Positions 2,736 to 64,000 of a DNA stretch of 64,000 nt are shown here, piece after piece. The notes beneath the pieces were generated by a model, which saw nothing but the letters and a program-made list of their open reading frames with translations, was not told where the DNA came from and made no database searches. Made by a program: the position numbers and the translations under genes. Origin of the DNA: a phage; the sequence record PZ386965.1. The stretch is one strand, 5' to 3'. Positions within the stretch are counted from its first letter, which is position 1; every line of letters begins with the position of its first letter.

Positions 2736-2760
2736 ATAATACCATACTATTCGTAAAGCA
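2736..2760 (-). promoter_or_regulatory. possible MotA-dependent middle promoter for gene 31
   Basis: Minus strand ATGCTTTA (MotA-box-like) then 12 nt then TATTAT. Confidence 0.35.
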
Positions 2761-2762
2761 TA

Positions 2763-3071
2763 TTACATAAGAAGCAAACGTTCTACCGGAGTACCATCAA
2801 CAGAAATTACTTTATCAAGGCGGAAAGAACGCCACTGACCTAACTCGGTATCGAATGCTCGAACTGATTCACGAGGTTCATAACGAACTTCTGTTGCCGG
2901 ATTGTTATTTTCATATTTGACTTCAAGTTCATCGCGCGAAGCAAACATAGTGCGTACCTCGCCGTTAGCCTTTTCAAATACAACACAATGAACGCCTACA
3001 GACAGAATAGTTTTAATACGTTCACGAAGAACCATAGTTTCTTGTTCAGTTAAAATCATATTATTCACCAC
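2763..3071 (-). CDS. hypothetical protein (31.1-like by position)
   Basis: ORF track; lies between cd and gene 31. Confidence 0.45.
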   Translation of the reverse strand: MVNNMILTEQETMVLRERIKTILSVGVHCVVFEKANGEVRTMFASRDELEVKYENNNPATEVRYEPRESVRAFDTELGQWRSFRLDKVISVDGTPVERLLLM

Positions 3072-3642
3072 AAAAGTTTCGGATTTGTTCCCAATTCAGA
3101 GAACGAAGATTATTACGAGAGTACTGAATTACTTCAATACCGGCTTGTTTTAGAATGTCTGCCCAATTTTCAGGAGATCTGTCATATAATTCTGCATATA
3201 CAACCTTTTTAATACCTGACTGTGTAATAGCTTTAGTGCAATCAGGACATGGAGAAAGCGTCGTATACAACGTAGCACCTTCAATAGAATTACCTTTACG
3301 AGCTGCAAACAAAATTGCATTCAATTCCGCATGGATTTCATTATTAGCAGACCATGCACTATGAGCGGCCCGATGTTCTTTAGCCAAAACAAAATTATCC
3401 ACCCGTCCAAATGCTGTAGTGCCTTCTTTATGCCCAGCAACGATGACCGGGCTTGGTTTATTCTTCAACCAACCGTTTTCGGATGCATGTTCGCAACAGT
3501 TTGTACCACCTGAAGGAGAGCCATTATAACCTGTAGAAATAATGCGTCCATCTTTTTCAATGACGGCACCAACTTTCCATGAACAACATTTTGATTCTTG
3601 AGAAATCAGATAAGCAATCTGAAGATATGTGCTAGCTTTCAT
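3061..3642 (-). CDS. cd: dCMP deaminase
   Basis: 193 aa with zinc-dependent deaminase motifs HAELNAI and SPCPDC. Confidence 0.9.
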   Translation of the reverse strand: MKASTYLQIAYLISQESKCCSWKVGAVIEKDGRIISTGYNGSPSGGTNCCEHASENGWLKNKPSPVIVAGHKEGTTAFGRVDNFVLAKEHRAAHSAWSANNEIHAELNAILFAARKGNSIEGATLYTTLSPCPDCTKAITQSGIKKVVYAELYDRSPENWADILKQAGIEVIQYSRNNLRSLNWEQIRNFCGE

Positions 3643-4634
3643 TATTGAACCTTATTAATATGAGTTAACAGCTCTTTAGTTTGTTCCCAACTGATGCACG
3701 CATCGGTAACGGAAACGCCATAGGACATATTATCAGAAATTTTTTGATTTCCTTCATGTAGGAATGATTCTATCATAATTCCTTTGACCAAATCATTAGC
3801 TGCTAAATTTTTACCAATACCAATTTGATTGCTATAATGCCCAGCAGCGTTTGCATGGCTACAGTCAACCATTACATAATGATTCAGACCTACGGCCCTT
3901 GCTTTGTTAGAAGCTTCTTGAATATCAGAAGAATGATAGTTCGGGCCATTGGTCCCGCCACGCAATACGATATGCGTATTCTGATTACCTTCAGCTTCAA
4001 CAATGCCTACAGTACCATCGACGTCCATACCCATATACCGATGAGGCCAGGCGGCACTATACATCGCGTCTGTAGCTACTTTAATAGAACCATTGGTTGC
4101 GTTCTTGAAGCCTACGCACATCGGTAGACCTGAAGCAATTTCACGATGTGTCTGACTTTCAGTCGTACGGGCGCCAATAGCAACCCATGAGAAAATACCA
4201 GAAAGATACTTAATCGTGAATGGGTCTAATACTTCAGTTGCTAATGGAAGTCCCATACGTAGAAGTTTACGACACAATGTTCGTGCAACTATAAGACCGT
4301 GGTTCATATCAAAACTTCCGTCAAGATATGGATCATTTACAAGACCTTTCCAACCTACGGTAGTTCGAGGCTTTTCAAAATAAACGCGCATCACTAACAG
4401 AACATTAGGAAGACGAGTTTGAAGTTCAGCCAGACGTTTGCCGTATTCAACAGCAGCAATAGGGTCATGAATTGAACAAGGACCTACAACAATAAGTTTG
4501 CGTGGGTCTTCACCATTCATAATCGAATTAACTTGTTCGCGATGAGAAGCCACTTGTGATGCGTAAGCTTCCGACAAAGGAATAATCTCAGCCAGTTCTT
4601 TTGGAGAAATAAGTTTTCCGACGACAGGTAACAT
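3642..4634 (-). CDS. 3-deoxy-7-phosphoheptulonate (DAHP) synthase, class I (AroG/AroF-like)
   Basis: 330 aa with IVVGPCSIHD, MRVYFEKPRTTVGWKGL, GARTTESQTHRE motifs of AroG-type DAHP synthase; stop overlaps cd start (TAATG). Confidence 0.9.
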   Translation of the reverse strand: MLPVVGKLISPKELAEIIPLSEAYASQVASHREQVNSIMNGEDPRKLIVVGPCSIHDPIAAVEYGKRLAELQTRLPNVLLVMRVYFEKPRTTVGWKGLVNDPYLDGSFDMNHGLIVARTLCRKLLRMGLPLATEVLDPFTIKYLSGIFSWVAIGARTTESQTHREIASGLPMCVGFKNATNGSIKVATDAMYSAAWPHRYMGMDVDGTVGIVEAEGNQNTHIVLRGGTNGPNYHSSDIQEASNKARAVGLNHYVMVDCSHANAAGHYSNQIGIGKNLAANDLVKGIMIESFLHEGNQKISDNMSYGVSVTDACISWEQTKELLTHINKVQ

Positions 4635-15792: not shown

Positions 15793-16185
15793 CTACTTTT
15801 TAAAAGTTTTTTGCAAAAGTTTGATGATTTCGTCGACGTTAGTTTCATCTACGATACAATGGATTTTTGTTACACCTAAAGTTATACCTTCGTTAGTAGG
15901 TTGAGGCTTTACTAAATCTACCTCAGTAAAGTATTTGAACTCGTCAGGATAAATCTCAAAATAAGTTTCAATTTCACCACCAGCAGAACATACAGTACCA
16001 TCTTCCATAGTTACACTTACTACGTTTGACGTATCGCTATCATAATCAGGTTCCATTCCGTTTACAACAAAACTGGGCCCATGGAGTTCAATCAGTTTTA
16101 ACATCTTAGCGTTATTATGTGGTGCTTCTTGAACAAAGTCGTCTTTAAATAAAGGGTTAATGATATAAGATTTTCCGATTTCCAT
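15793..16185 (-). CDS. hypothetical protein (130 aa)
   Basis: ORF track; promoter motif at 16215-16243. Confidence 0.45.
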   Translation of the reverse strand: MEIGKSYIINPLFKDDFVQEAPHNNAKMLKLIELHGPSFVVNGMEPDYDSDTSNVVSVTMEDGTVCSAGGEIETYFEIYPDEFKYFTEVDLVKPQPTNEGITLGVTKIHCIVDETNVDEIIKLLQKTFKK

Positions 16186-17319: not shown

Positions 17320-17973
17320 TTAATACTTACATGATTTGATTGTTTCTATGAACAATTTCTTAGCAGCATTTCTGTCGATTTGAAGTATTTTTCGATATGC
17401 CTTTAATTTGGTAGAATAATTTTGCCAGACTAAGTTATCGGTGAGTTCGTCGTGCTTATCTATAATATTCAAAAATGAGTCCAACAATAAGAAAGTCTCA
17501 AATGAAATTATATTGCTTTGTAGCAATTTGAATATGTAGCTCGACTGAACTTTATTATTATAATCAAATATCTCTTGAAGCGCACTAACTTCCACTTTCT
17601 TACTGAAATAGTAGATGTTACGTACGTCTTCAGCAAACGTCTCCTTGGCTTGTTTGAGACGTCCAATATATTCCCTATAGAAAACTAATGCATCAGCGTC
17701 TGATATCTCACCAATCCATGCGTCTTGGTTAGCAACTAAGTTGCTTATGAATATCAAGGTGAGTTCCTTCAATTTATATTTCTCTGCTAGTTTTTCAAAG
17801 AAATATTTATCTCGGCGTTTTTGATACGCATTATCCGAAACACGCATGCACCAGTTATATTTGATTACGTCATACCGACCATTAAAATGTTGTTTGCACA
17901 TCAAGTATAGTTTGTATACCGATTTTCCGTTAATATAACGTTCTCCATCAGGAGGCATGCGTATTTTAATCAT
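17320..17973 (-). CDS. 59: gp59 helicase loader
   Basis: 217 aa; MIKIRMPPDGERYINGKSVYKLYLM... matches T4 gp59. Confidence 0.85.
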   Translation of the reverse strand: MIKIRMPPDGERYINGKSVYKLYLMCKQHFNGRYDVIKYNWCMRVSDNAYQKRRDKYFFEKLAEKYKLKELTLIFISNLVANQDAWIGEISDADALVFYREYIGRLKQAKETFAEDVRNIYYFSKKVEVSALQEIFDYNNKVQSSYIFKLLQSNIISFETFLLLDSFLNIIDKHDELTDNLVWQNYSTKLKAYRKILQIDRNAAKKLFIETIKSCKY

Positions 17974-25328: not shown

Positions 25329-28300
25329 ATGGCTACATTAAAACAGATACAATTTAAAAGAAGCAAAGTGGCAGGAGTTAATCCTACTGCAGCACAATTA
25401 GCCGAAGGCGAATTAGCGATAAACTTAAAAGATCGAACTCTTTTTACTAAAGATGACCTCGGTAATATTATTAGCCTAGGCTTTGCTAAGGGCGGGGATA
25501 TTAACGGTAATGTAACTCAAACTGGCGATTATTTACAAAACGGCACGTATAATCTCAATGGAAATCAGTTTGTTTATGCAGGAAAATACATTGAATTTTT
25601 ACCTAAAACCACTGGAAATGGCGCTTGGGCTAACCAACATTCGAATAAAGCCCCTATCTTTACAGATTTAAGTTCAACTACTTCTGTTTCAGAATACCAT
25701 CCACTGATTAAACAACGCTATAAAGATGGAACTTTTTCTGCTGGTACATTAGTAAACGAAGGTAGTTTTAAATTCCATTATATTGATGAAACCGGGTCTT
25801 CAAAATACTGGACTTTTAATCGAAACGGTAATTTTCAAGTTGATTCCGGAAGTTTATTAGTATCTAATGGATATTTAGTTACTCAAAGTAATATTGAAAC
25901 TAAAGCTGGTTCTTTAATTGGTCCTAAAGTTATTACCAAAAATATCAATGTGAGCACTAAATCTTGGGACACTAATATTGATACTGCATATGATTTAGTT
26001 TCATTACCGACTTGGCACTATACTCCAACCGAAACGGATTTGGATACTAATGGTGTAAACTACCTTCGTAAATTCCGCGGACATGTTTCTTCTGCTATTT
26101 TCCATGAAGTTGCCGATGCTCGTTCAGGTAAACCACAGAATATTTCGTATTGGACGGGACGTAATGCTGAAGTTTATCAATGGTCTTATACCACAGATGG
26201 GCGTATGTCTGTTGCTAATTCGATAGGTATAGGTCTTGCTGATGTTGGTAACCAAGGACGTTATCCATTGGTTTCGTTTGGTAAAGGTATTGCAATTGGT
26301 GACAATGATACTGGTATTAAATGGGTTCGTGACGGGGTTATCGATTTAGTTGCGAATGGTATTTCTGCCGGCACTATTCTTAATAACGGTATTAACAGTA
26401 CTAAAAAATTGATGGTTGGTTATAGTCGAGATTCTGGTTCTACTTGGGATTACCCAAATAACAACCAAGCAATGTTTACTGCGCGTACCGATGTTGATGG
26501 TAATAATAGCGGTGACGGTCAGACTCATATTGGTTATAGCAGCAATGCCAAGATGTATCACTATTTCCGTGGCACTGGTCGTATGACCGTTAGTATGGGT
26601 GATGGGCTTCTTGTTGAGCCTGGCATTTTAGATATTAAAACTGGTTCAAATTCGTTAAATTTGCGTGCTGATGGTACCATCGCTTCTGTTCAAACGTTAA
26701 AACTTAATAATGGATTATATTTTAATGGTGATGGAACTAATGCTTCTCTAGTTTTTAAAGCGGCTTCAGGTATTGATGGCACCAAACAAATCCTTTGGGA
26801 AGGCGGCACTCGAGCAGGCCAGAATAAGAGTTATGTAACTGTTAAAGCATGGGGTAATGCCTTTAACGCATCTGGCGATAAATCTCGTGAAACCGTATTT
26901 GAAGTCTCTGATGGACAAGGTTGGTATTTCTACACTCAACGCCTGGCTCCAACTGATTCTGGAACCATAGGTCGTGTTACAACTTACTTCAATGGTGAGC
27001 TTCGTTCTAAAGGAAACCTAATAAGCGAAGGAATTCTTGAAGTTGATGGAACAAGCACACTAGCCGGTAATGTTACTATGTCTAACGGTTTGTTTGTTCA
27101 AGGTGGTTCTTCTATTACTGGACAAGTTAAAATCGGCGGAACGTTCGATGCATTAAGAATTTGGAACGCTGAATATGGTGCTATTTTCCGTCGTTCAGAG
27201 GCGGCATTGCATATTATCCCGACTCCTAAAGATGCTGGAGAATCAGGTGGAATAAGCAATCTCCGTCCATTAAGTATTAGTCTTAATAATGGTATGGTAC
27301 AAATGCGCCATTCTGTCACGTTAGGCGATGATGGCGCTGGCGGTAATATGATTACTGTGGACAATGATAACAAACTTGTTGTTGTTACTAGTCATAGTCG
27401 TATTTCTCCTAATTACCGTATGCAGGTAGGACAAGCAGCTTATATTGATGCTGAATGTACTGACACCGTTCGCCCGGCTGGTGCAGGGTCTTTTGCTTCA
27501 CAAAATAATGAAAACGTTCGTGCTCCGTTCTATATGAATATTAATCGCACAGATACAAGTACTTACGTTCCTATTTTAAAACAACGTTATGTTCAAGGAA
27601 ATAGCTGTTATTCTTTAGGTACTTTAATAAATGGCGGTAACTTCAGAGTTCATTATCATGAAGGTGGAGACGGAAGTTCAACAGGCGCAACTATAAAAGA
27701 TTTAGGATGGGAATTTACACGTTCTGGTGATTTTATATCTCCTAAGCGCATTTCTGCTGGGGGTTCAGTTTATTTAGGTACAGACGGTAACATTACTGGT
27801 GGTTCTGGTAATTTTGCCAACTTAAATAGTACAATTGAATCACTTAAAACTGATATTGTCTCAAGTTATCCAATTGGTGCTCCGATTCCTTGGCCTACTG
27901 ATACACCTCCTGAAGGCTATGCCATAATGGAAGGTCAAACATTTGATGCTGACTTGTATCCTAAGTTAGCTGCAGTGTATCCTTCCGGCGCTCTGCCTGA
28001 TATGCGTGGTCAGACGATTAAAGGTAAACCATCTGGGCGTGCTGTATTAAGTACAGAAGCAGACGGTGTTAAGTCACATAGCCATAGTGCAAGTGCATCA
28101 AGCACAGATTTGGGTACTAAGACCACTTCTAGTTTTGATTACGGTAGCAAAACGACTTCAAGCTTTGATTATGGTACTAAGACCAGTAATACCACTGGCA
28201 ACCATAACCATACAGTGAGTGGTAATACTAGTTCCGCTGGTGCGCACCAACACGCGCGTTCAGGTCCTCAGGTACAAGGCGGCATACCCACTAGCGTATT

Positions 28301-28622
28301 CTATGATGGATACAATAGTGCGGGTCCAAACGGTAACGCTAAATTCACTGCAACCGTGAGTGGTGCTACCGCATCGTCGAATATGGCCAAAACTTCTTCA
28401 GACGGTGCCCACACCCATAGTTGGTCAGGAACTACTAGCGCTACGGGTAACCATGCTCATACTGTCGGTATTGGTGCTCACACCCATTCGGTAGGTATTG
28501 GTGCTCATTCTCATACTGTTGCAATTGGTTCCCACGGACATACAATAACTGTAAATGCCACAGGAAATACAGAAAACACAGTTAAAAACGTTGCTTTTAA
28601 CTATATCGTTCGTTTAGCATAA
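25329..28622 (+). CDS. 37: gp37 long tail fiber distal subunit (receptor-binding)
   Basis: 1097 aa; C-terminal His-x-His repeats ([24 protein letters not shown]) typical of the T4-type fiber tip. Confidence 0.9.
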
Positions 28623-28626
28623 GGAG

Positions 28627-28647
28627 AAGGGACTTCGGTCCCTTTTT
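28627..28647 (+). terminator. hairpin after gene 37 (terminator or RNA-stability element)
   Basis: AAGGGAC-UUCG-GUCCCUU-UUUA on plus strand between 37 and 38. Confidence 0.45.
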
Positions 28648-28652
28648 ATAAT

Positions 28653-29204
28653 ATGAAACTCTATCACTATTATTTTGACACTAAAGAATTTTACAAAGAA
28701 GAAAATTATAAACCATTAAAAGGCGTAGGATTTCCGGCTCATTCGACACCAAAAAAACCTTTAGACCCTAAAGAAGGCTATGCTGTTATATTTGACGAAC
28801 GCGAGCAAGAATGGGTATATGTTGAAGACCATCGCGGAAAAACAGTATGGACATATGATAAGCAAAAAATTGTTATTGACACTCCAGGTGCTCTTCAAAA
28901 TGTCACTACAGAAGAACCAGGTGAATTTGACCTTTGGACTGACGACGGGTGGAAGGAAGATGAAGCGTATAAGCGGGTAGTTCAACGTGATAAGAAAATT
29001 CATGAACTCTATAAATTATTCAGTGTTTTAAGTTCTCTTATTGATGCAGAGGTTGCTAATAGAGAAGAAAAACGAAAATTTAAAGAGCTCAAAAAATTCT
29101 TTGCCCTTTTAGAAAAACATGAACATCTTGGCGGCGAATTCCCTAAATTCCCTGACCTTGAAAACAAATCTATTATCAAAGCGATTATAAATATCTTTAA
29201 GTAA
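28653..29204 (+). CDS. 38: gp38 distal tail-fiber assembly chaperone (T4 type)
   Basis: 183 aa; MKLYHYYFDTKEFYKEENYKP... matches T4-type gp38, not the T2-type adhesin. Confidence 0.85.
   Translation: MKLYHYYFDTKEFYKEENYKPLKGVGFPAHSTPKKPLDPKEGYAVIFDEREQEWVYVEDHRGKTVWTYDKQKIVIDTPGALQNVTTEEPGEFDLWTDDGWKEDEAYKRVVQRDKKIHELYKLFSVLSSLIDAEVANREEKRKFKELKKFFALLEKHEHLGGEFPKFPDLENKSIIKAIINIFK
29186..29193 (+). promoter_or_regulatory. late promoter TATAAATA (holin t)
   Basis: Exact TATAAATA 21 nt upstream of t ATG, inside the 3' end of gene 38. Confidence 0.5.
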
Positions 29205-29213
29205 GGAGGTATT

Positions 29214-29873
29214 ATGGCAACACCAAAAGTATCATTTTCGCTTAGTGATATTCTATTTGGGTTGCTAGATCGTATTTTCAAAGATAACGCTACTGGAAAG
29301 GTTTTAATGTCCCGAGTAGCGGTAATTATTCTTTTGTTCCTAATGGCACTAATATGGTACAAAGGAAGTATTTTGCTGGATTATTATGTAAGAGCTAAGT
29401 ATGATACTTATACTGAAATAATCCAAAAAGAACGAGCTTTACGTTTTGAATCTGCGGCTCTAGAACAACTGCAAATAGTTCATATCTCATCTGGTGCAGA
29501 TTTTAGTGCTGTGTATTCTTTCAGACCTAAAAACTTAAATTATTTTGTCGACCTTATAGCTTATGAAGGCAAACTACCTAGCACAATTTCTGAAAAGTCC
29601 CTTGGCGGATTCCCAGTGGATAAAACGGCCAATGAATATATAATTCATTTAAGTGGCCGTCATTTCTCATCTAAATCAGAATTTGCATTTTTGCCTACAA
29701 AATCTAAGACTGCCGAACTTTCTTATATGTATAGTTGTCCATACTTTAATTTGGATAACATCTACGCTGGAACTGTGACGATGTATTGGTATAAGGGGAG
29801 TAATATACTTGAGGAAGATCGCTTAGCAGCTATATGCAACCAAGCGGTCCGAATACTAGGAAGGGCTAAATAA
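29214..29873 (+). CDS. t: holin
   Basis: 219 aa; single N-terminal TMD then large periplasmic domain; late promoter at 29186-29193. Confidence 0.85.
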   Translation: MATPKVSFSLSDILFGLLDRIFKDNATGKVLMSRVAVIILLFLMALIWYKGSILLDYYVRAKYDTYTEIIQKERALRFESAALEQLQIVHISSGADFSAVYSFRPKNLNYFVDLIAYEGKLPSTISEKSLGGFPVDKTANEYIIHLSGRHFSSKSEFAFLPTKSKTAELSYMYSCPYFNLDNIYAGTVTMYWYKGSNILEEDRLAAICNQAVRILGRAK

Positions 29874-30146
29874 TTAGTTGTTAGAATACATCGCTAAATG
29901 ACGATAAATATTTTCAAAACCTTCATTGAATTCACTAATCAGTGTTTTCTTTTCTTCGGCAGTTAAATTTGTAATTAGTTTTCTGAACGAATTCTGATTT
30001 AGCTGCCGACCATCTTTTTTAATTCCAATCTCATTCAAGAATCCGATGAAACTTGCTCGGTCTTCAACAATATCTTCCCTAGAGAATTTAATCAAAATAG
30101 AAGCAATAGTAATAATTTCACGTACGATTTCAATGTCTTTATTCAT
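29874..30146 (-). CDS. asiA: anti-sigma70 factor AsiA
   Basis: 90 aa; MNKDIEIVREIITIASILIKFSREDIVE... matches AsiA. Confidence 0.85.
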   Translation of the reverse strand: MNKDIEIVREIITIASILIKFSREDIVEDRASFIGFLNEIGIKKDGRQLNQNSFRKLITNLTAEEKKTLISEFNEGFENIYRHLAMYSNN

Positions 30147-30192
30147 AACGTTTTATTCATTCCACTTGGTTGATATGGATATAGTACCATTA

Positions 30193-30357
30193 TCAGTGTT
30201 GATTGTAAACGGCTTTTTCTACGCTTTTAACATAATCAATGTAGTCTTCCTGTTCGTACGAGTGTAAGGCTAAGAACGGAGCTAATAGTTCATTATAGAC
30301 TAAAGCCTCACGCTCACGTTCGGCCTCTACTACGTTCTGAAGATTATGACTCATATT
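30193..30357 (-). CDS. small hypothetical protein
   Basis: ORF 30193-30408 trimmed to internal Met to avoid overlap with upstream gene. Confidence 0.3.
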   Translation of the reverse strand, partial: NMSHNLQNVVEAEREREALVYNELLAPFLALHSYEQEDYIDYVKSVEKAVYNQH

Positions 30358-30643
30358 GTTCCTTATAACTATCAATGTAGTCCTGTATGTCGAAGAATGA
30401 CATTTCATATTCTAGGGCATTAAGAGCCCGTTCTTCAGTATAGTCAGAACCAAAGACGATAGTGATTTCACCAGGCTTCATGTGATTGAAATCGACACTA
30501 AAAGGAATACGAGAACATACTTCGTCTTCCATATCTACGATAACACTACGACACACTTCTCGGTTAACCTGATAAAGCTCTGCAAGTTCTTCACAACGAA
30601 TAACAAGTTCAGTGGCAGGATTTTCTTTGATTTTAGTAAGCAT
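30344..30643 (-). CDS. arn: Arn-like protein (by position next to asiA)
   Basis: 99-aa acidic ORF at the T4 arn position. Confidence 0.45.
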   Translation of the reverse strand: MLTKIKENPATELVIRCEELAELYQVNREVCRSVIVDMEDEVCSRIPFSVDFNHMKPGEITIVFGSDYTEERALNALEYEMSFFDIQDYIDSYKEQYES

Positions 30644-40420: not shown

Positions 40421-41521
40421 TTACGCTGTGAAGATTTTATCCCACATCGCAACAACTGCATCTCGATTATACTTCTTCCATACTGCTTCAGCACGTTTAA
40501 CTCGAGCTTCGTATGTGTCAGTGAATTCTAATACAGCTTTTGTGTAAAGCGCAACTACTTCTTTCTTAGGAGTAGAGGAATCAATTTCTACACGCACAGT
40601 ATCTGGGTCGTATTCAAATGACGCATGAGGATAATCCTTAAAAACTAACTGGATTACAGGGACACCTTTAGAGATGGCTTCAATAGAACTATTCTCTACC
40701 GTACCTGTGTCAGGACACGTATTAATAAGTGCTTTAGCTGTTTTAAGACGTTCCATAATTTCACTGTGTGGAGCATCAATAATAACAGGATATTTAGCTG
40801 GTGGTGCCCATTTACTAGGACAGTATCCTGCACCATTTTCGCCTAGTGCTTTAATCGCTTCAAGAGCAACATCAGTACGACGCATTTTAGTGTCATAACG
40901 TTGTGCACTAATAATCAGATCAGTCGCCGGAAGAACTTCAGGTTTCTCATTCAAACAAATAACCGGATAATCTTCGGCTTCAAACAACGGATTTGCTCGC
41001 CAATAATCATAATCAATTTTGTCAGTCAGACCTGAAGTCATATAACAATATTTACGTTCAAATTCACGGAAGGCTTTAGTAGGAGCATAACTCTTACCAC
41101 CGTTCTTATGAATTTGAATAGTCTGGTCCCAAATTTGAACAATGCCACGAGATACCGGTTCAAATGGTGTTGCCATAAAATTCTTATGAACTTTAGAGAG
41201 ACCTGCGTCTTTAATTGCCTGAACGGTTAGTTTAGTCGGTTCCATAGTAACAACGAAATCGTATTCATGGATGCCGGCTAGTTCAACAATCTTACGAGCC
41301 ATAGTATAACTCATACCTAGACTGAATTTAGTCAGATGACCAACAGGATGATGATTAACCTTCCAATCACCAAATGTGTCATTATCAAAACCAATATAAT
41401 CAATATCGGCACCGATAGAAACTAAATATTTCAACACATTTAAATGTACTGCTTCAAGACCACCTTGTACACGGTCAGGATTAAATGGGACTGCACGAGA
41501 TGGGATAAACATAACTTTCAT
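40421..41521 (-). CDS. GT-B fold glycosyltransferase (GT4-like)
   Basis: 366 aa; N-terminal ...FNPDRVQGGLEAVHLNVLKYL (GG-E motif) and C-terminal TVENSSIEAISKGVPVI (E-x7-E-like); ATG at 41519-41521. Confidence 0.65.
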   Translation of the reverse strand: MKVMFIPSRAVPFNPDRVQGGLEAVHLNVLKYLVSIGADIDYIGFDNDTFGDWKVNHHPVGHLTKFSLGMSYTMARKIVELAGIHEYDFVVTMEPTKLTVQAIKDAGLSKVHKNFMATPFEPVSRGIVQIWDQTIQIHKNGGKSYAPTKAFREFERKYCYMTSGLTDKIDYDYWRANPLFEAEDYPVICLNEKPEVLPATDLIISAQRYDTKMRRTDVALEAIKALGENGAGYCPSKWAPPAKYPVIIDAPHSEIMERLKTAKALINTCPDTGTVENSSIEAISKGVPVIQLVFKDYPHASFEYDPDTVRVEIDSSTPKKEVVALYTKAVLEFTDTYEARVKRAEAVWKKYNRDAVVAMWDKIFTA

Positions 41522-41539
41522 AATTAAGCCTTATTAAAA

Positions 41540-41565
41540 TTAAAATGAAGCTCCCGAAGGAGCTT
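41540..41565 (-). terminator. UUCG-tetraloop hairpin after gene 39
   Basis: AAGCUCC-UUCG-GGAGCUU then U-rich tail on minus strand, between gene 39 and the glycosyltransferase gene. Confidence 0.45.
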
Positions 41566-43381
41566 AGGACATCCATTCTTTACGAAGTTCTGAATCATCA
41601 CCCATCAACATTTCAAAGAGTTCTTTCCAATTTTCAGGAAGTTTAACTACGTCGTACACAGGGTTCTGAATCATTTCACGATATTCTGACTTTTCAAGGG
41701 AGCCTAATCCCTTGATGTATCGAATACTATGCTTAGGCAGTGTATCTTTAACTTCTTCATACTCAGCTACAGTATAAAACCATTTTTGAGTTTTGCCAAT
41801 TTGTGCAATAATTACAGGTGTTTTAACAAAGCGAATACGTCCTTGTTCAAACAATTCAGGCCAATTACTAAAGAAAGCAAGCAAAGCCGGATAGATACTT
41901 CCAAGACCGTCATGATCTGCATCAGTCATAATTGCAATATTACGATAGTTCGTATTCTCTGCCTTTTCACCAAGAATAAGACCTGTGATAGCACAGATAT
42001 CAAAGAGCTCTTTGTTCTTCATCATATCAGCATATGACATACCCCAGCTATTCATCACCTTACCACGTAACGGGAATCCGCCGTGTAGTTCACGGTCACG
42101 AACATCAATGAGATAACCAATTGCAGAATCACCTTCTGTTAAGAACAATGTCGTATCTGCATCTTTACCACATTGGTTAGCTTTAATATGCTTATGAACC
42201 TTAGCTTTAGTTGCCTTTTTAGCTGCTTTAGTTTCTGCAGCCTTTTCTGCCGCCAATTTACGAGCTAATGCTGCTTCAACAATAGGCATAATCAAGGCTT
42301 CGTTTTTAAGAAGTGCCTGAGCAATTTTCTTAGCATCTAATTGGATATGATTACGAATATCGCCATACGTTGACGTTAAACGTTCTTTAGTCTGAGAATC
42401 AAAACGCATGTTGCTCATGTCTCTAATAAACATCAACATTGTGAGGCATTCTTTAACACGAGCTTTAGTGACTTCAATACCCTTATATTTCTTTTTAATA
42501 CCCGGCAAAAGATGTTCGCAGATATCGTCCATTACACATTCAACATGATGTCCACCATTTTTAGTATGGATGTTATTCACATAAGTTAAATGACGGAAGC
42601 CATCTGGTGATGTTGTGAATGCTATAGAGACTTTATCATTTTCTTGAATGATGTTATCTTCACCAAATTGTTTAGCAAATCGTTTAAAATTACCATCAAC
42701 CTTTTTACCGTTAAATGTGAACTTGATATCAGGATAAACGACTGCCAATGTTTGAAGTCGGTCTAAAGTAATATCTAAATAAATTTGAGATAAATTATGC
42801 TCTTCAAATGAAGTGAAATCAGGAGTGAAGATTACTTTAGTGCCTTTACCTTTAGATTTCTTAGAAGACCATGATTTGTTTTCCATTCCGTTTGAACAGT
42901 TAACAGTGATTTCATTTTCGCCATCTGACGTAATGCCTGTAAACAACGTAGAGAAGATATTAGTTAAACTACTCCCTACACCGTTCATACCACCGGTCTT
43001 GCGTTCAGAGTCATCACCAAAGTTACCACCAGCCTTTGGAATAGTCCAGGCTGCTACAGGCCCAGGAATTTGTTCACCTGTTTGGTCGGTAACTAAACCT
43101 TGAGGAATACCACGTCCGTTATCTTCTACAGAAACTTGATTATTTTTAATTTGCACATCAATTTTATTTGCAAACTTAAATGATGTACGAATAGCTTCAT
43201 CAACCGAGTTGTCAATAATCTCATCGATTAATTTAACCAGGCCAGGAACATATTCAACTTGTTGATATTTACCAAACAAAAAACGCTCATGTGCTTCTTT
43301 GGCCGAAGAACCAATATACATACCACTACGTTTCTTAATATGTTCTACATCTGACAATACCTTAATTTCATTTTTAATCAT
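41564..43381 (-). CDS. 39: topoisomerase II large subunit (GyrB-like), unsplit
   Basis: 605 aa; GHKL ATPase motifs (IDNSVDEA, NGRGIP, GGMNGVGSS) and Toprim region in one ORF. Confidence 0.9.
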   Translation of the reverse strand: MIKNEIKVLSDVEHIKKRSGMYIGSSAKEAHERFLFGKYQQVEYVPGLVKLIDEIIDNSVDEAIRTSFKFANKIDVQIKNNQVSVEDNGRGIPQGLVTDQTGEQIPGPVAAWTIPKAGGNFGDDSERKTGGMNGVGSSLTNIFSTLFTGITSDGENEITVNCSNGMENKSWSSKKSKGKGTKVIFTPDFTSFEEHNLSQIYLDITLDRLQTLAVVYPDIKFTFNGKKVDGNFKRFAKQFGEDNIIQENDKVSIAFTTSPDGFRHLTYVNNIHTKNGGHHVECVMDDICEHLLPGIKKKYKGIEVTKARVKECLTMLMFIRDMSNMRFDSQTKERLTSTYGDIRNHIQLDAKKIAQALLKNEALIMPIVEAALARKLAAEKAAETKAAKKATKAKVHKHIKANQCGKDADTTLFLTEGDSAIGYLIDVRDRELHGGFPLRGKVMNSWGMSYADMMKNKELFDICAITGLILGEKAENTNYRNIAIMTDADHDGLGSIYPALLAFFSNWPELFEQGRIRFVKTPVIIAQIGKTQKWFYTVAEYEEVKDTLPKHSIRYIKGLGSLEKSEYREMIQNPVYDVVKLPENWKELFEMLMGDDSELRKEWMS

Positions 43382-52865: not shown

Positions 52866-52890
52866 AAAAAAGGAATCCCGAAGGATTCCT
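52861..52890 (-). terminator. UUCG-tetraloop hairpin terminator after soc
   Basis: AGGAAUCC-UUCG-GGAUUCCU then UUUUUUUU on minus strand. Confidence 0.6.
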
Positions 52891-52898
52891 TAAATTAT

Positions 52899-53135
52899 TT
52901 AACCACTTACTGGTGTAGGGGTAAACATTGCAGCGTTCTTAGTTTTCCAAGTTGCTGCATCAGAAACGACATCAGAATAAGCTGCCTTTTCTGACGGAAA
53001 GATTTGGTAATGAGAATCTGCAATCCGATGTTCGTTTGAATAAATCTCAAACGGAACAGAAACTTCCATACCTTTAACTTCTTTACCTTCACCAGCAGGA
53101 TGCGTAAAGGTTTTGATGTTTACATAACCACCCAT
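52899..53135 (-). CDS. soc: small outer capsid protein Soc
   Basis: 78 aa; ...YVNIKTF...YQIFPSEKAAYS... matches Soc; TATAAATA late promoter upstream. Confidence 0.75.
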   Translation of the reverse strand: MGGYVNIKTFTHPAGEGKEVKGMEVSVPFEIYSNEHRIADSHYQIFPSEKAAYSDVVSDAATWKTKNAAMFTPTPVSG

Positions 53136-53166
53136 AATTAACTCCTTTGTTGTTTAATTACAGGTG

Positions 53167-53174
53167 TATTTATA
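53167..53174 (-). promoter_or_regulatory. late promoter TATAAATA (soc)
   Basis: Plus-strand TATTTATA, i.e. TATAAATA on minus strand, about 32 nt upstream of soc. Confidence 0.5.
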
Positions 53175-53180
53175 ACTTAA

Positions 53181-53717
53181 TTAGTAACCATTATCCTGAC
53201 GTTCAAAGTTGTGTTGGTTTTTCAAGTAGTAAAGTTTAAAGATTTCTTCAGCCGAAAGACCTAGACCTTGGAACATATTTAGAACGAAATGCAGAATATC
53301 AATCATTTCAAATTTAATTTCAAGCTGGTCTTCAGGAGACAGTTCATCGATACGACGATTTCGATATTCAGCATGTTGTGCTTTCCATGGCTTCCATACA
53401 CTGCTGGCGGCTTTTTCACCATTGCTCATACCACCAAGTGAAGTCAACAGTTCACGGAATTCATCATCAATATAATCTTTCTGATTACGCAGCCAATCAA
53501 CAACATCACCAGCAGTGGCCAATTCATCAGGATGTTTGTTATGTTCAGGCTTGTCATTTGCCAGACGAACCTGTAAAGATTTCTGCATATCAAGCATTAC
53601 CTGCAGTGGGTCTTTATCTTCGTGAATCAGAGCATTAAAATAAGCTTCTTCTGCTTTATCAACACCAGAAATAAGTTGTGAACATTCATTAAAGTGTGCC
53701 ATTATTTTTCCTTTCAA
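53181..53717 (-). CDS. 56: gp56 dCTPase/dUTPase (MazG-like)
   Basis: 178 aa; ...FNECSQLISGVDKAEE...DPLQVMLDMQKSLQVRLAN... matches gp56. Confidence 0.85.
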   Translation of the reverse strand: MKGKIMAHFNECSQLISGVDKAEEAYFNALIHEDKDPLQVMLDMQKSLQVRLANDKPEHNKHPDELATAGDVVDWLRNQKDYIDDEFRELLTSLGGMSNGEKAASSVWKPWKAQHAEYRNRRIDELSPEDQLEIKFEMIDILHFVLNMFQGLGLSAEEIFKLYYLKNQHNFERQDNGY

Positions 53718-53790
53718 TTCAGTATAAGAGAGTTAATTCTAACATTAATTTTATAAAGCGTAATAAATAATAGGTAACCAAGGAGATATT

Positions 53791-53988
53791 ATGTTTAAAC
53801 TTCCATCGTTAATCAACGCTATTAAAGGCAATAAAAAGAAAACTGCTATCGCCGCAATAGTTGTAGGTGGCATTATTTCATGGAACTTCGGGATTGCACC
53901 GTTGTTAGTTGCCCATGGTATTATAGTTCCTTCTGTTCCATTGGATACTGTAGTTGATTTGGCCTTTGCTATTATAGGGCTTGTTTAA
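53791..53988 (+). CDS. small membrane protein (65 aa), plus strand
   Basis: Strong SD AAGGAG 6 nt before ATG; two hydrophobic segments; stop shares TTTAAA with the convergent gene 61 stop. Confidence 0.4.
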   Translation: MFKLPSLINAIKGNKKKTAIAAIVVGGIISWNFGIAPLLVAHGIIVPSVPLDTVVDLAFAIIGLV

Positions 53989-55007
53989 ATCTTCGAATAA
54001 CGAGATAATCTCATTTTAGCATGCAACCCACTTGAAATATTCTGTTTCATATATTCTAAAATTTCTTGTGGTGTTGCATTTTCTTTCATTACCATATCAT
54101 TCACATCCTTTGATCTCCATGGAGCTCGATCCCAGAACATGACACGTTCGCCTGAATCAACTAATCGCTTCATGCGAGCTATAGTATCCGGATGCCTAGG
54201 TTCATTATCCATTACCCATACCCGACGTTCTTTAAATGGTACCACATCTAAATCTATCGAGCCGCCTGTAATAGCGATTGCATTGGGTATGAATAAACTA
54301 TCAATAGGGCCTTCCATTACCCAGACGTCTCCTTCCTTAACACGTTCAACACCATAAATTTTTGTTGCAGACTCAAACGCTTTAATAGTGATATATTTCT
54401 GAGGAGCATCTTTACGAAGTGCACGTCCTTGGAATGACTCGGCCTTCCCATCTTTATTAAAAATAGGAATCACTAAACGCGGTTCAGGAATCTCTTTCTT
54501 ATACGTACCAGGTTGAATCTTGTTGACCAATTTGGGCCATTCTAATGTGAACCATAATCTGTTCCATGATTCTTTAGGAATACACCGAGACTTAACATAT
54601 TTCACAATAGGATGCTCTTCAGGCAACTTGTCCAGACGAGAACAAGACGGCAAAGAATTTATAGTCTTTTTCTCTGGCTCTGGCTTAGCTTCAGGAACCT
54701 TTTCAATCTTTGGTTCCATTCTAGCTTTTTCTTTACGAACTTCCATTAGATACTCGCGATAAAGCTCTTCATCGTACTCTTTTAAGTATCCGGAAATTGT
54801 ATTGTGGTATTGACAGTTATAGCAATGTACATTACCAGGAGTACCACCGTAATACCATCCGCGGGCTTTCATTGCATCTGTCTGAGAGTCGCCACAAACT
54901 GGACAACGAAATGTTAATTTAAATGTGCTTGAATTATTGATTTGTCTAAAACGAGGGAGGTGAGAAAACGCACGATAAGCAAATTCATTATCTATCCATT
55001 CAGCCAT
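53985..55007 (-). CDS. 61: gp61 DNA primase
   Basis: 340 aa; N-terminal zinc ribbon CPVCGDS...CYNC and Toprim-like core. Confidence 0.85.
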   Translation of the reverse strand: MAEWIDNEFAYRAFSHLPRFRQINNSSTFKLTFRCPVCGDSQTDAMKARGWYYGGTPGNVHCYNCQYHNTISGYLKEYDEELYREYLMEVRKEKARMEPKIEKVPEAKPEPEKKTINSLPSCSRLDKLPEEHPIVKYVKSRCIPKESWNRLWFTLEWPKLVNKIQPGTYKKEIPEPRLVIPIFNKDGKAESFQGRALRKDAPQKYITIKAFESATKIYGVERVKEGDVWVMEGPIDSLFIPNAIAITGGSIDLDVVPFKERRVWVMDNEPRHPDTIARMKRLVDSGERVMFWDRAPWRSKDVNDMVMKENATPQEILEYMKQNISSGLHAKMRLSRYSKI

Positions 55008-63181: not shown

Positions 63182-63897
63182 TAGTCAAGGAATCCTTTAA
63201 CATAATCAAAATCACGTTCAAACACATGGGCACTTACCATGGTATGAGTATAATCACCAACTTCTACACCGCATTCGTTAGCGATATAATGAAGTAATTT
63301 TCCTTGGAGATAAAAATCCAACTGCATAACAACAGCACAGTTCTGAGAACGCATATGACAGTGGGTATAAAGCTTACCATCACGAATATAATAAGTTACT
63401 GAGTCAGTACATGGATATTCAAGTGTTTCGTCCGAATCAAGCAAAGCCTGATCAGAACTTTCTAGAATTTGGAACACAACTCTTCGAGAGTTAGGTTTTT
63501 CTTTAAGTTCTTTTAGAAGAGTTGGTAATTGGGCCGCAATGCGAGGACCATAGAAAGTGTTGAAGTTCGCCGGCAAAACATCTGATTTTGGTTTAGAAAT
63601 AAATTTAGCGACATTAGGATATGCCTTAAACGCTTCTTCTGCGTTGGTACCACCAGAAATCATAAACTTCCAGAAGTCTTCGGCATATTCATAAGAGATG
63701 CGGTTAATACGTGGGTCGGTCATTTTGAATGATGATGGAGTGTCAACAACTACTGTCATAGACCCAATTTCATTACAACGTCCAATACGAGAATCAGTTA
63801 CGAATTCCGGGTTTTCTAAAATTTCACGATTGACTGCTTTAAACGCGGTTTGAAAATCTGCGGCTTTGATATATTTCATTGTGTTATGTTTTCCCAT
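63181..63897 (-). CDS. 42: thymidylate synthase-family pyrimidine hydroxymethylase (probable dCMP hydroxymethylase)
   Basis: 238 aa; ...SRRVVFQI...YPCTDSVTYYIRDG...MRSQN... parallels the TS active-site architecture seen in td in this window. Confidence 0.6.
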   Translation of the reverse strand: MGKHNTMKYIKAADFQTAFKAVNREILENPEFVTDSRIGRCNEIGSMTVVVDTPSSFKMTDPRINRISYEYAEDFWKFMISGGTNAEEAFKAYPNVAKFISKPKSDVLPANFNTFYGPRIAAQLPTLLKELKEKPNSRRVVFQILESSDQALLDSDETLEYPCTDSVTYYIRDGKLYTHCHMRSQNCAVVMQLDFYLQGKLLHYIANECGVEVGDYTHTMVSAHVFERDFDYVKGFLD

Positions 63898-64000
63898 GTT
63901 TACCTCAATACAATTTATTATATACTCAATTCGTAAAGCTTATTTGAATTTCTTGACAATGTTGATATAACGTAAAGCTTCAGAATCTATACTTCCAAGA

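Follow-up and report, generated by a model that had tools for sequence, protein, structure and literature searches.

The dam-less soc-56-61 interval of an RB69-like phage is a standard Mosigvirus module with a conserved convergent small ORF that T4 shares

The interval between soc and gene 61 in the phage genome analyzed here is very likely to be a standard RB69-type module, from which T4 differs by its optional inserts segF and dam, with a small plus-strand gene for a 65-aa product that is probably a late inner-membrane protein. This reading is built on gene identities, the absence of dam and segF, conservation of the small open reading frame (ORF), synteny and purifying selection, all of which were observed directly. 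The analysis covers a 64,000 nt stretch of phage DNA (record PZ386965.1; referred to as "the window"), in which we focused on the interval from 53,136 to 53,988 and on its flanking genes. Over 150 records of Mosigvirus (RB69-like) aligned with the 2.3 kb interval, in each case as one uninterrupted alignment, with identities of 95-99% (mostly given as 97-98% over its whole length); ATK47 and JK36 were approx. 98% identical. Judged by its sequence, the window belongs to Mosigvirus, i.e., to the RB69-like T-even phages.

On the minus strand, the interval and its flanks contain soc, encoding the small outer capsid protein (78 aa; 52899-53135; Pfam Soc, E = 1.7e-18; PHROG 1715, E = 2.8e-41; named soc in the JK36 and RB69 annotations), gene 56, encoding a dCTPase/dUTPase (173 aa; 53181-53702; Pfam dUTPase_2; PHROG 173, E = 1.8e-45), and gene 61, encoding the DNA primase (340 aa; 53985-55007; PHROG 47, E = 1.6e-101; annotated as primase in relatives). 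The mechanically called ORF for gene 56 begins at a TTG (53717); its homologs in JK36, ATK47 and RB69 are annotated from the ATG at 53702. The first-pass annotation, made from the sequence of the window, had described soc, 56 and 61 as nearly contiguous, and the spacers of 45 nt (soc-56) and 282 nt (56-61) that we obtained from the ORF list and the sequence agree with this description. The same annotation had pointed to a hydrophobic 65-aa ORF on the plus strand with a strong AAGGAG, which we also found (53791-53988, with AAGGAG at 53780-53785 and a Kyte-Doolittle hydropathy of approx. 1.9), and it had correctly placed the stop codons of this ORF and of gene 61 in a common TTTAAA hexamer (53984-53989, read on both strands). 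The TAA of the ORF occupies 53986-53988 on the plus strand and the stop of gene 61 occupies 53985-53987 on the minus strand; the two convergent ORFs thus overlap by 4 nt (53985-53988).

The same arrangement is found in RB69 (NC_004928), the Mosigvirus type genome, where the order soc-56-RB69ORF029w(+)-61 is accompanied by the same strands and spacing as in the window. The encoded proteins are 98% (small ORF), 99% (gp61) and 97% (gp56) identical between the two phages, and RB69 differs from the window only by point changes and by a slightly longer soc-56 spacer. Gene order in JK36 is also that of the window, with the plus-strand ORF annotated as hypothetical protein JK36_00027; in the RefSeq record of ATK47 this ORF carries no annotation. 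The soc-56-61 arrangement is therefore already known, as it became public with the genome record of RB69, in which the small ORF is RB69ORF029w. The compact layout is the standard Mosigvirus module and is probably the ground state of the T-even phages as well.

In T4 (NC_000866), the gene order is soc - segF - 56 (with oriA) - dam - 309 nt of unannotated sequence - 61. T4 shares with the window soc, 56, 61, the small plus-strand ORF and the 4-nt overlap of its stop with that of gene 61 (identities between T4 and the window of 46% for soc, 72% for gp56, 73% for gp61 and 54% for the small ORF), and it carries in addition segF (675 nt) between soc and 56 and dam (780 nt) between 56 and the small ORF. 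T4 hence departs from the compact layout because it carries two optional inserts, segF and dam. The first-pass annotation had named gene 69 and dam as T4 genes of this neighborhood; dam is indeed located between 56 and 61 in T4, but gene 69 is not a separate gene of the present map. In a 1984 record (X01416; "gene 69 spanning an origin of replication"), gene 69 covers the present gene 56 together with segF, and 69* covers segF, which indicates that the reading as "gene 69" is obsolete. The free-standing homing endonuclease SegF is inserted between soc and 56 and targets gene 56 (PMC2988022). As SegF, of the GIY-YIG type, is a mobile element, its absence from a relative is to be expected; among the loci compared here, segF was present in T4 and VR26. 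No SegF homolog was found in the 45-nt soc-56 spacer or in the 64-kb window (best tblastn E = 1.9 in a search extended to E = 10; phmmer was also run). The statement that the inserts dam and "69" are missing from the soc-56-61 interval was thus confirmed, as neither a Dam nor a SegF homolog occurs in it. Conversely, the plus-strand ORF had been presented as extra relative to T4, which is incorrect, since T4 carries a homolog (17738-17938) alongside dam. These absences represent known genus-level differences in genes known to be mobile or optional and, as originally stated, they carry little weight.

Searches for Dam used the T4 protein as query (PF02086, D12-class N6-adenine DNA methyltransferase; E = 6.7e-51), and a positive control, BCH953P4, was recovered with E = 1.8e-174. 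The 56-61 interval, in which the 65-aa ORF is the sole ORF, gave no tblastn match with T4 Dam. In the whole 64-kb window no Dam homolog was detected either (best tblastn E = 0.58 in a search extended to E = 10; phmmer likewise negative). JK36 (168,893 bp) was the one Mosigvirus genome searched end to end; its complete sequence yielded no tblastn match at E ≤ 1, phmmer reached E = 1.2 at best, and its annotation lists no methyltransferase. Scanning JK36 and the window for methyltransferase motif IV, (D/N/S)PP(Y/F/W), revealed no occurrence in an ORF of methyltransferase size; three distinct chance matches were present in JK36, one of them also in the window, in ORFs of 69-159 aa of which none is methyltransferase-like. 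A dam gene at another site, which would have contradicted the first-pass annotation, was therefore absent by tblastn, phmmer, motif scan and annotation from the window and from the complete genome of its 98%-identical relative JK36.

T4 Dam was found in 182 phage records at ≥90% identity, and the small ORF was found by tblastn in 693 phage records. Among Tequatrovirus loci from IMG/VR and GenBank, the order 56-dam-ORF-61 was observed in T4 and in three further loci (L010, L017 and L018), and the compact order 56-ORF-61 was observed in three IMG/VR loci (L016, L019 and L020) and in NIC06P2, the complete genome of which contains no Dam homolog. A Dam-like gene has been reported in only some Tequatrovirus (PMC13390438). 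Overall, dam is an optional cassette, and the small ORF is not a replacement for it, as T4 has both a homolog of the ORF and dam. Since the compact dam-less layout is common to Mosigvirus, Dhakavirus and many Tequatrovirus, it represents a common state and not a peculiarity of the genome in the window. Moreover, dam-less Tequatrovirus, Mosigvirus and Dhakavirus have a spacer motif, 'ccattatttttcctt.tcaattca', in common, which makes the compact state look ancestral and dam look inserted. As far as the sequences allow polarity to be judged, dam looks like an insertion in T4-type phages as opposed to a gene repeatedly and precisely lost, with parsimony over a few lineages favoring insertion.

An alternative explanation is that this lineage deleted dam and "gene 69", that the deletion is a functionally important trait peculiar to this genome, and that N6-adenine methylation at GATC is consequently missing, with effects on restriction or repair. 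The lack of a Dam homolog in the window and in JK36 would fit a deletion, as would the location of T4 dam at exactly this site. Such a deletion could also be seen in the GATC content, as GATC is by far the most depleted tetranucleotide of the window, with 42 observed as compared to approx. 207 expected occurrences (ratio 0.20, i.e., five-fold depletion; the next lowest tetranucleotide has a ratio of 0.62), and the complete JK36 genome shows the same ratio (113 observed, 557 expected). However, GATC was depleted to nearly the same extent in one Dam-positive (ratio 0.36) and one Dam-negative (ratio 0.35) Tequatrovirus, and we thus rejected loss of Dam as the cause of the depletion. As phages with and without Dam are depleted alike, GATC avoidance is common to T-even phages in general, is more pronounced in Mosigvirus and does not result from the absence of Dam. 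That T-even genomes avoid GATC independently of the phage's own Dam is a modestly useful by-product of this comparison. The sharing of the dam-less layout and of a homologous spacer by Mosigvirus, Dhakavirus and many Tequatrovirus also speaks against a deletion private to this genome, and predictions about methylation are complicated by the host's own Dam and by the cytosines of Mosigvirus DNA, which are arabinosylated (PMC13390438). While an effect of Dam absence on GATC methylation, as had been predicted, is plausible, a lineage-specific deletion is rather unlikely, and we favor the reading of dam as an optional cassette.

The 65-aa ORF matches PHROG 2024 (function unknown) over its full length (residues 1-65 of the 65-position profile; E = 1.9e-27), with no difference from the family found, and it is classified here as a member of the RB69ORF029w family of small membrane proteins. 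The T4 homolog (66 aa, 54% identity) is located at 17738-17938 (4239-4439 of our T4 locus, L003), in the gap between dam and 61, and is not annotated in NC_000866. Family members were found in Tequatrovirus, Mosigvirus, Dhakavirus, Jiaodavirus and the Klebsiella phage HMGUkp2, and in all of these the ORF is convergent with gene 61. Dhakavirus genomes (VR26; VR7, where it is annotated as VR7ORF033w) have a second, tandem paralog, and it is this second copy that overlaps the gene 61 stop. The 4-nt overlap of stops also occurs in T4, in other Tequatrovirus and in HMGUkp2. A Krischvirus and Acinetobacter phage Acj9 showed no homolog after gene 61. A word-indexed search for distant homologs returned only seven close relatives, and an HMM search run exhaustively against 1.84 billion representative proteins returned only two clusters, which indicates that the family does not extend beyond this group of phages. 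Pfam, NCBIfam and PADLOC gave no match to the ORF, and nothing relevant to it was found in the literature, including work on T4 ribosome profiling and on unannotated small proteins.

The use of promoters, the late timing, the topology in the membrane and a possible role in the cell are predicted components of the overall reading. The soc-56 spacer contains, upstream of soc on the minus strand, an exact match to the T4-type late promoter motif TATAAATA (53167-53174). In JK36 this motif is located 31 nt before the soc ATG, and P(L) 15.32 is annotated ahead of soc in the T4 record X01416; in T4, segF occupies the spacer that holds this motif in the window. A middle promoter for gene 56 is predicted on the minus strand at 53736-53759, with a MotA-box-like cGCTTTA (53754-53759) and a -10 element TAGAAT (53736-53741) 12 nt apart. 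Its position is that of Pm:16038, a middle promoter predicted for RB69 (RB69 15998-16038, equivalent to window positions 53728-53768; Nolan et al., PMC1524935 supplement), and in T4 the corresponding position is occupied by P(M) 16.53 and oriA. T4 and the window both have a late promoter before soc and a middle promoter, predicted in the window, upstream of 56.

On the plus strand, a late-promoter-like element, AATAAATA (53762-53769), is located 21 nt before the ATG of the 65-aa ORF. T4-type late promoters are dependent on gp55, gp33 and gp45; the element before the ORF matches their motif (TATAAATA, -13 to -6) in 7 of 8 positions and is spaced like those of soc, e, rI and inh. T4-type late promoters start with T, whereas the element at the ORF starts with A and its counterparts in other genera start with G or C. 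The -13 T is, however, poorly conserved in T4-like phages, being A or T, and the published list of RB69 late promoters has no entry at the AATAAATA site (Nolan et al., PMC1524935). In JK36, the AATAAATA variant is found 24-27 nt before three late genes (e, rI and inh), and TATAAATA is found before soc and structural genes. Moreover, NATAAATA is present 16-22 nt upstream of the ATG of the small ORF in Mosigvirus, in Tequatrovirus with and without dam and in Dhakavirus, although the flanking sequences have diverged. From these patterns we infer that AATAAATA may serve as a late promoter of the 65-aa ORF. The Shine-Dalgarno sequence AAGGAG (53780-53785, plus strand) precedes the ATG by 5 nt and is kept as AAGGAG(G) in all groups. 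No sigma-70-type promoter was found for the plus-strand ORF, an Rfam scan of the spacer gave sub-threshold chance matches only, and neither a terminator nor a stable hairpin was found at the convergent junction (folding z-scores of +0.6 and +1.3). As there is no terminator at the junction, plus- and minus-strand transcripts must overlap.

Taken together, the 282-nt spacer between 56 and 61 could act as a back-to-back regulatory node. A MotA-type middle promoter would drive gene 56 on the minus strand, and the late-type variant AATAAATA, together with a strong ribosome-binding site, would drive the 65-aa gene on the plus strand. Transcription of the latter gene would run head-on against the primase gene at its 3' end, where the two stops overlap.

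The 65-aa protein has a net charge of +5 in residues 1-17 and Kyte-Doolittle hydropathy of approx. 1.9 over residues 20-41 and 44-62. An AlphaFold2 model computed from the family alignment (mean pLDDT of 80) has helices at residues 3-11, 15-41 and 51-62. In this model, residues 18-41 (approximate boundaries) would form a clear transmembrane helix, with the basic N-terminus predicted to be cytoplasmic. The segment comprising residues 44-62 is as hydrophobic as the first, carries D52 and D56 and is poorly conserved in paralogs; as its score is as high as that of the first segment, the protein may instead adopt a two-span hairpin topology. A core motif, W-N-x4-P-x4-(H/Q)-G-x3-P (W31, N32, P37, H42, G43 and P47), is kept across eight family members and is predicted to lie where the helix reaches its outer end and in the loop behind it. 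The product would thus resemble an N-in, late-expressed inner-membrane protein that works at the periplasmic face and has a short hydrophobic or acidic C-terminal helix. A late-expressed inner-membrane protein is the most likely description of the 65-aa product.

It could be argued that the 65-aa ORF does not represent a gene, but a frame that is open by chance in AT-rich spacer sequence or the antisense counterpart of an element on the minus strand (e.g. of read-through from 61 to 56), in particular as neither the T4 reference nor the ATK47 RefSeq record annotates the ORF and as it has no match in Pfam, NCBIfam or PADLOC. This explanation is highly improbable given the patterns of conservation. 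The frame is open over 63-66 aa in five virus groups that share 27-55% amino acid identity, with the ATG and the strong ribosome-binding site conserved across groups, and in Dhakavirus it has a tandem paralog. Pairwise dN/dS in the annotated frame was 0.09 within Mosigvirus and 0.13 within Tequatrovirus, the lowest values of all six frames; antisense frame rc1 also showed lowish values (0.17-0.23). Variable sites were concentrated at third codon positions (6, 0 and 13 at first, second and third positions in Mosigvirus; 6, 2 and 11 in Tequatrovirus). There is no minus-strand ORF at this location, and Rfam gave nothing credible. Overall, these data indicate that the ORF is very probably a real protein-coding gene. 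The strong purifying selection on the peptide sequence itself also bears on a second explanation, i.e., that the plus-strand unit acts mainly at the RNA level and the peptide is secondary, either because late antisense transcription shuts down primase or because early read-through from 61 to 56 silences the ORF in a manner similar to type I toxin-antitoxin systems. Overlapping convergent stops at a junction without a terminator or stable hairpin, in an arrangement conserved in several genera, would be consistent with such regulation. On the other hand, 18 nt lie between the ORF and gene 61 in Jiaodavirus, and approx. 200 nt lie between the first paralog and gene 61 in Dhakavirus, which shows that the exact overlap of stops is not obligatory, and a mainly RNA-level function is very unlikely as compared to a function of the encoded protein.

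A function of the protein as a holin, an antiholin or another lysis-timing or envelope protein would be in agreement with its small size, its transmembrane helix and its probable late-type promoter. A fold search against viral models recovered family members only, one of which (phage OE5505, UniProt/BFVD) is labelled "Holin". This label appears to be automatic, and the ORF showed no match to holin families in Pfam, NCBIfam or PHROG. In addition, Tevenvirinae already possess a holin, T (160532-161191 in JK36), and the ORF is not part of a lysis cassette, with 56 and 61 as its neighbors in JK36 and the endolysin gene e at 66008-66496. The ORF resembles holins and type I toxins (Hok, TisB) in its size, its hydrophobic helix and its potentially antisense-overlapped transcript, but it has no sequence or profile similarity to them. 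We therefore regard a role of this kind as distinctly doubtful. As to a more general role, the protein might be a late Tevenvirinae inner-membrane protein that is timed by head-on transcription against primase and acts at the periplasmic face, e.g. in lysis timing, exclusion or envelope integrity; this proposal is tentative and, in our judgment, unlikely to hold in full. A second modestly useful by-product is that T4 itself holds, at the end of its primase gene, a gene for a small membrane protein that is conserved and under selective constraint but lacks annotation, and its reference record could be extended accordingly.

A homolog of the window's small membrane protein, 66 aa in length, is encoded on the plus strand of T4 (NC_000866, 17738-17938; positions 4239-4439 of the T4 locus L003), inside the 309-nt gap between dam and gene 61, where the reference genome carries no annotated CDS. 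This ORF is preceded by GATAAATA and AAGGAGG, and its stop overlaps that of gene 61 by 4 nt. In the Dhakavirus phage VR26 (locus L015), the small membrane protein is represented by two tandem paralogs (2501-2698 and 2707-2907; 38% identity to each other across 42 aa, E = 4e-8), the second of which overlaps the gene 61 stop; the single copy found in Klebsiella phage HMGUkp2 is the ortholog of this second paralog.

Other inserts in the interval between genes 56 and 61 were found at 2740-4011 of the HMGUkp2 locus (L029), where gene 56 is annotated as two pieces with a 762-nt ORF in between, and at 2795-3445 of a Jiaodavirus locus (L030), where a homing endonuclease separates the small ORF from gene 56. 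This interval is apparently an insertion hot spot for mobile elements. In Tequatrovirus BCH953P4 (L010), an ORF of 186 aa lies immediately upstream of dam on the minus strand (41019-41579) and abuts the dam start; apparently the same ORF is found next to dam in another dam-positive Tequatrovirus locus (L018). The BCH953P4 ORF showed a weak, sub-threshold Pfam match to DpnII, a GATC-specific restriction endonuclease (E = 0.0045; bit score 16.8, below the cut-off of 23), and, on the basis of this sequence match, dam may have been acquired within a restriction-modification-like cassette. The ORF may also be what PMC13390438 refers to as a "restriction enzyme-like gene".

GATC was the most depleted tetranucleotide in the window by a wide margin, with an observed to expected ratio of 0.20 (42 versus approx. 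207 sites; the second-lowest tetranucleotide ratio was 0.62), and the same ratio was obtained for the JK36 genome. As the ratio is approx. 0.35 in Tequatrovirus both with and without Dam, GATC depletion does not follow the presence of Dam. Three of the 42 window sites (54112, 54128 and 55549) are close to the soc-56-61 interval.

Immediately downstream of soc, a GC-rich 9-bp hairpin with T-runs on either side (52870-52891) looks like a terminator by prediction; ARNold likewise called the hairpin downstream of soc in ATK47. JK36 carries the Mosigvirus cytosine-arabinosylation neighbourhood, in which a thymidylate-synthase-family "dCMP hydroxymethylase" homolog precedes genes for U32 peptidase-like and GlmU-like proteins and for an arabinose-5-phosphate isomerase. 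Judged from the corresponding JK36 region (25332-30433), its counterpart should occupy approx. 63200-64000 of the window and continue past the window end, with only the first gene expected within the window.
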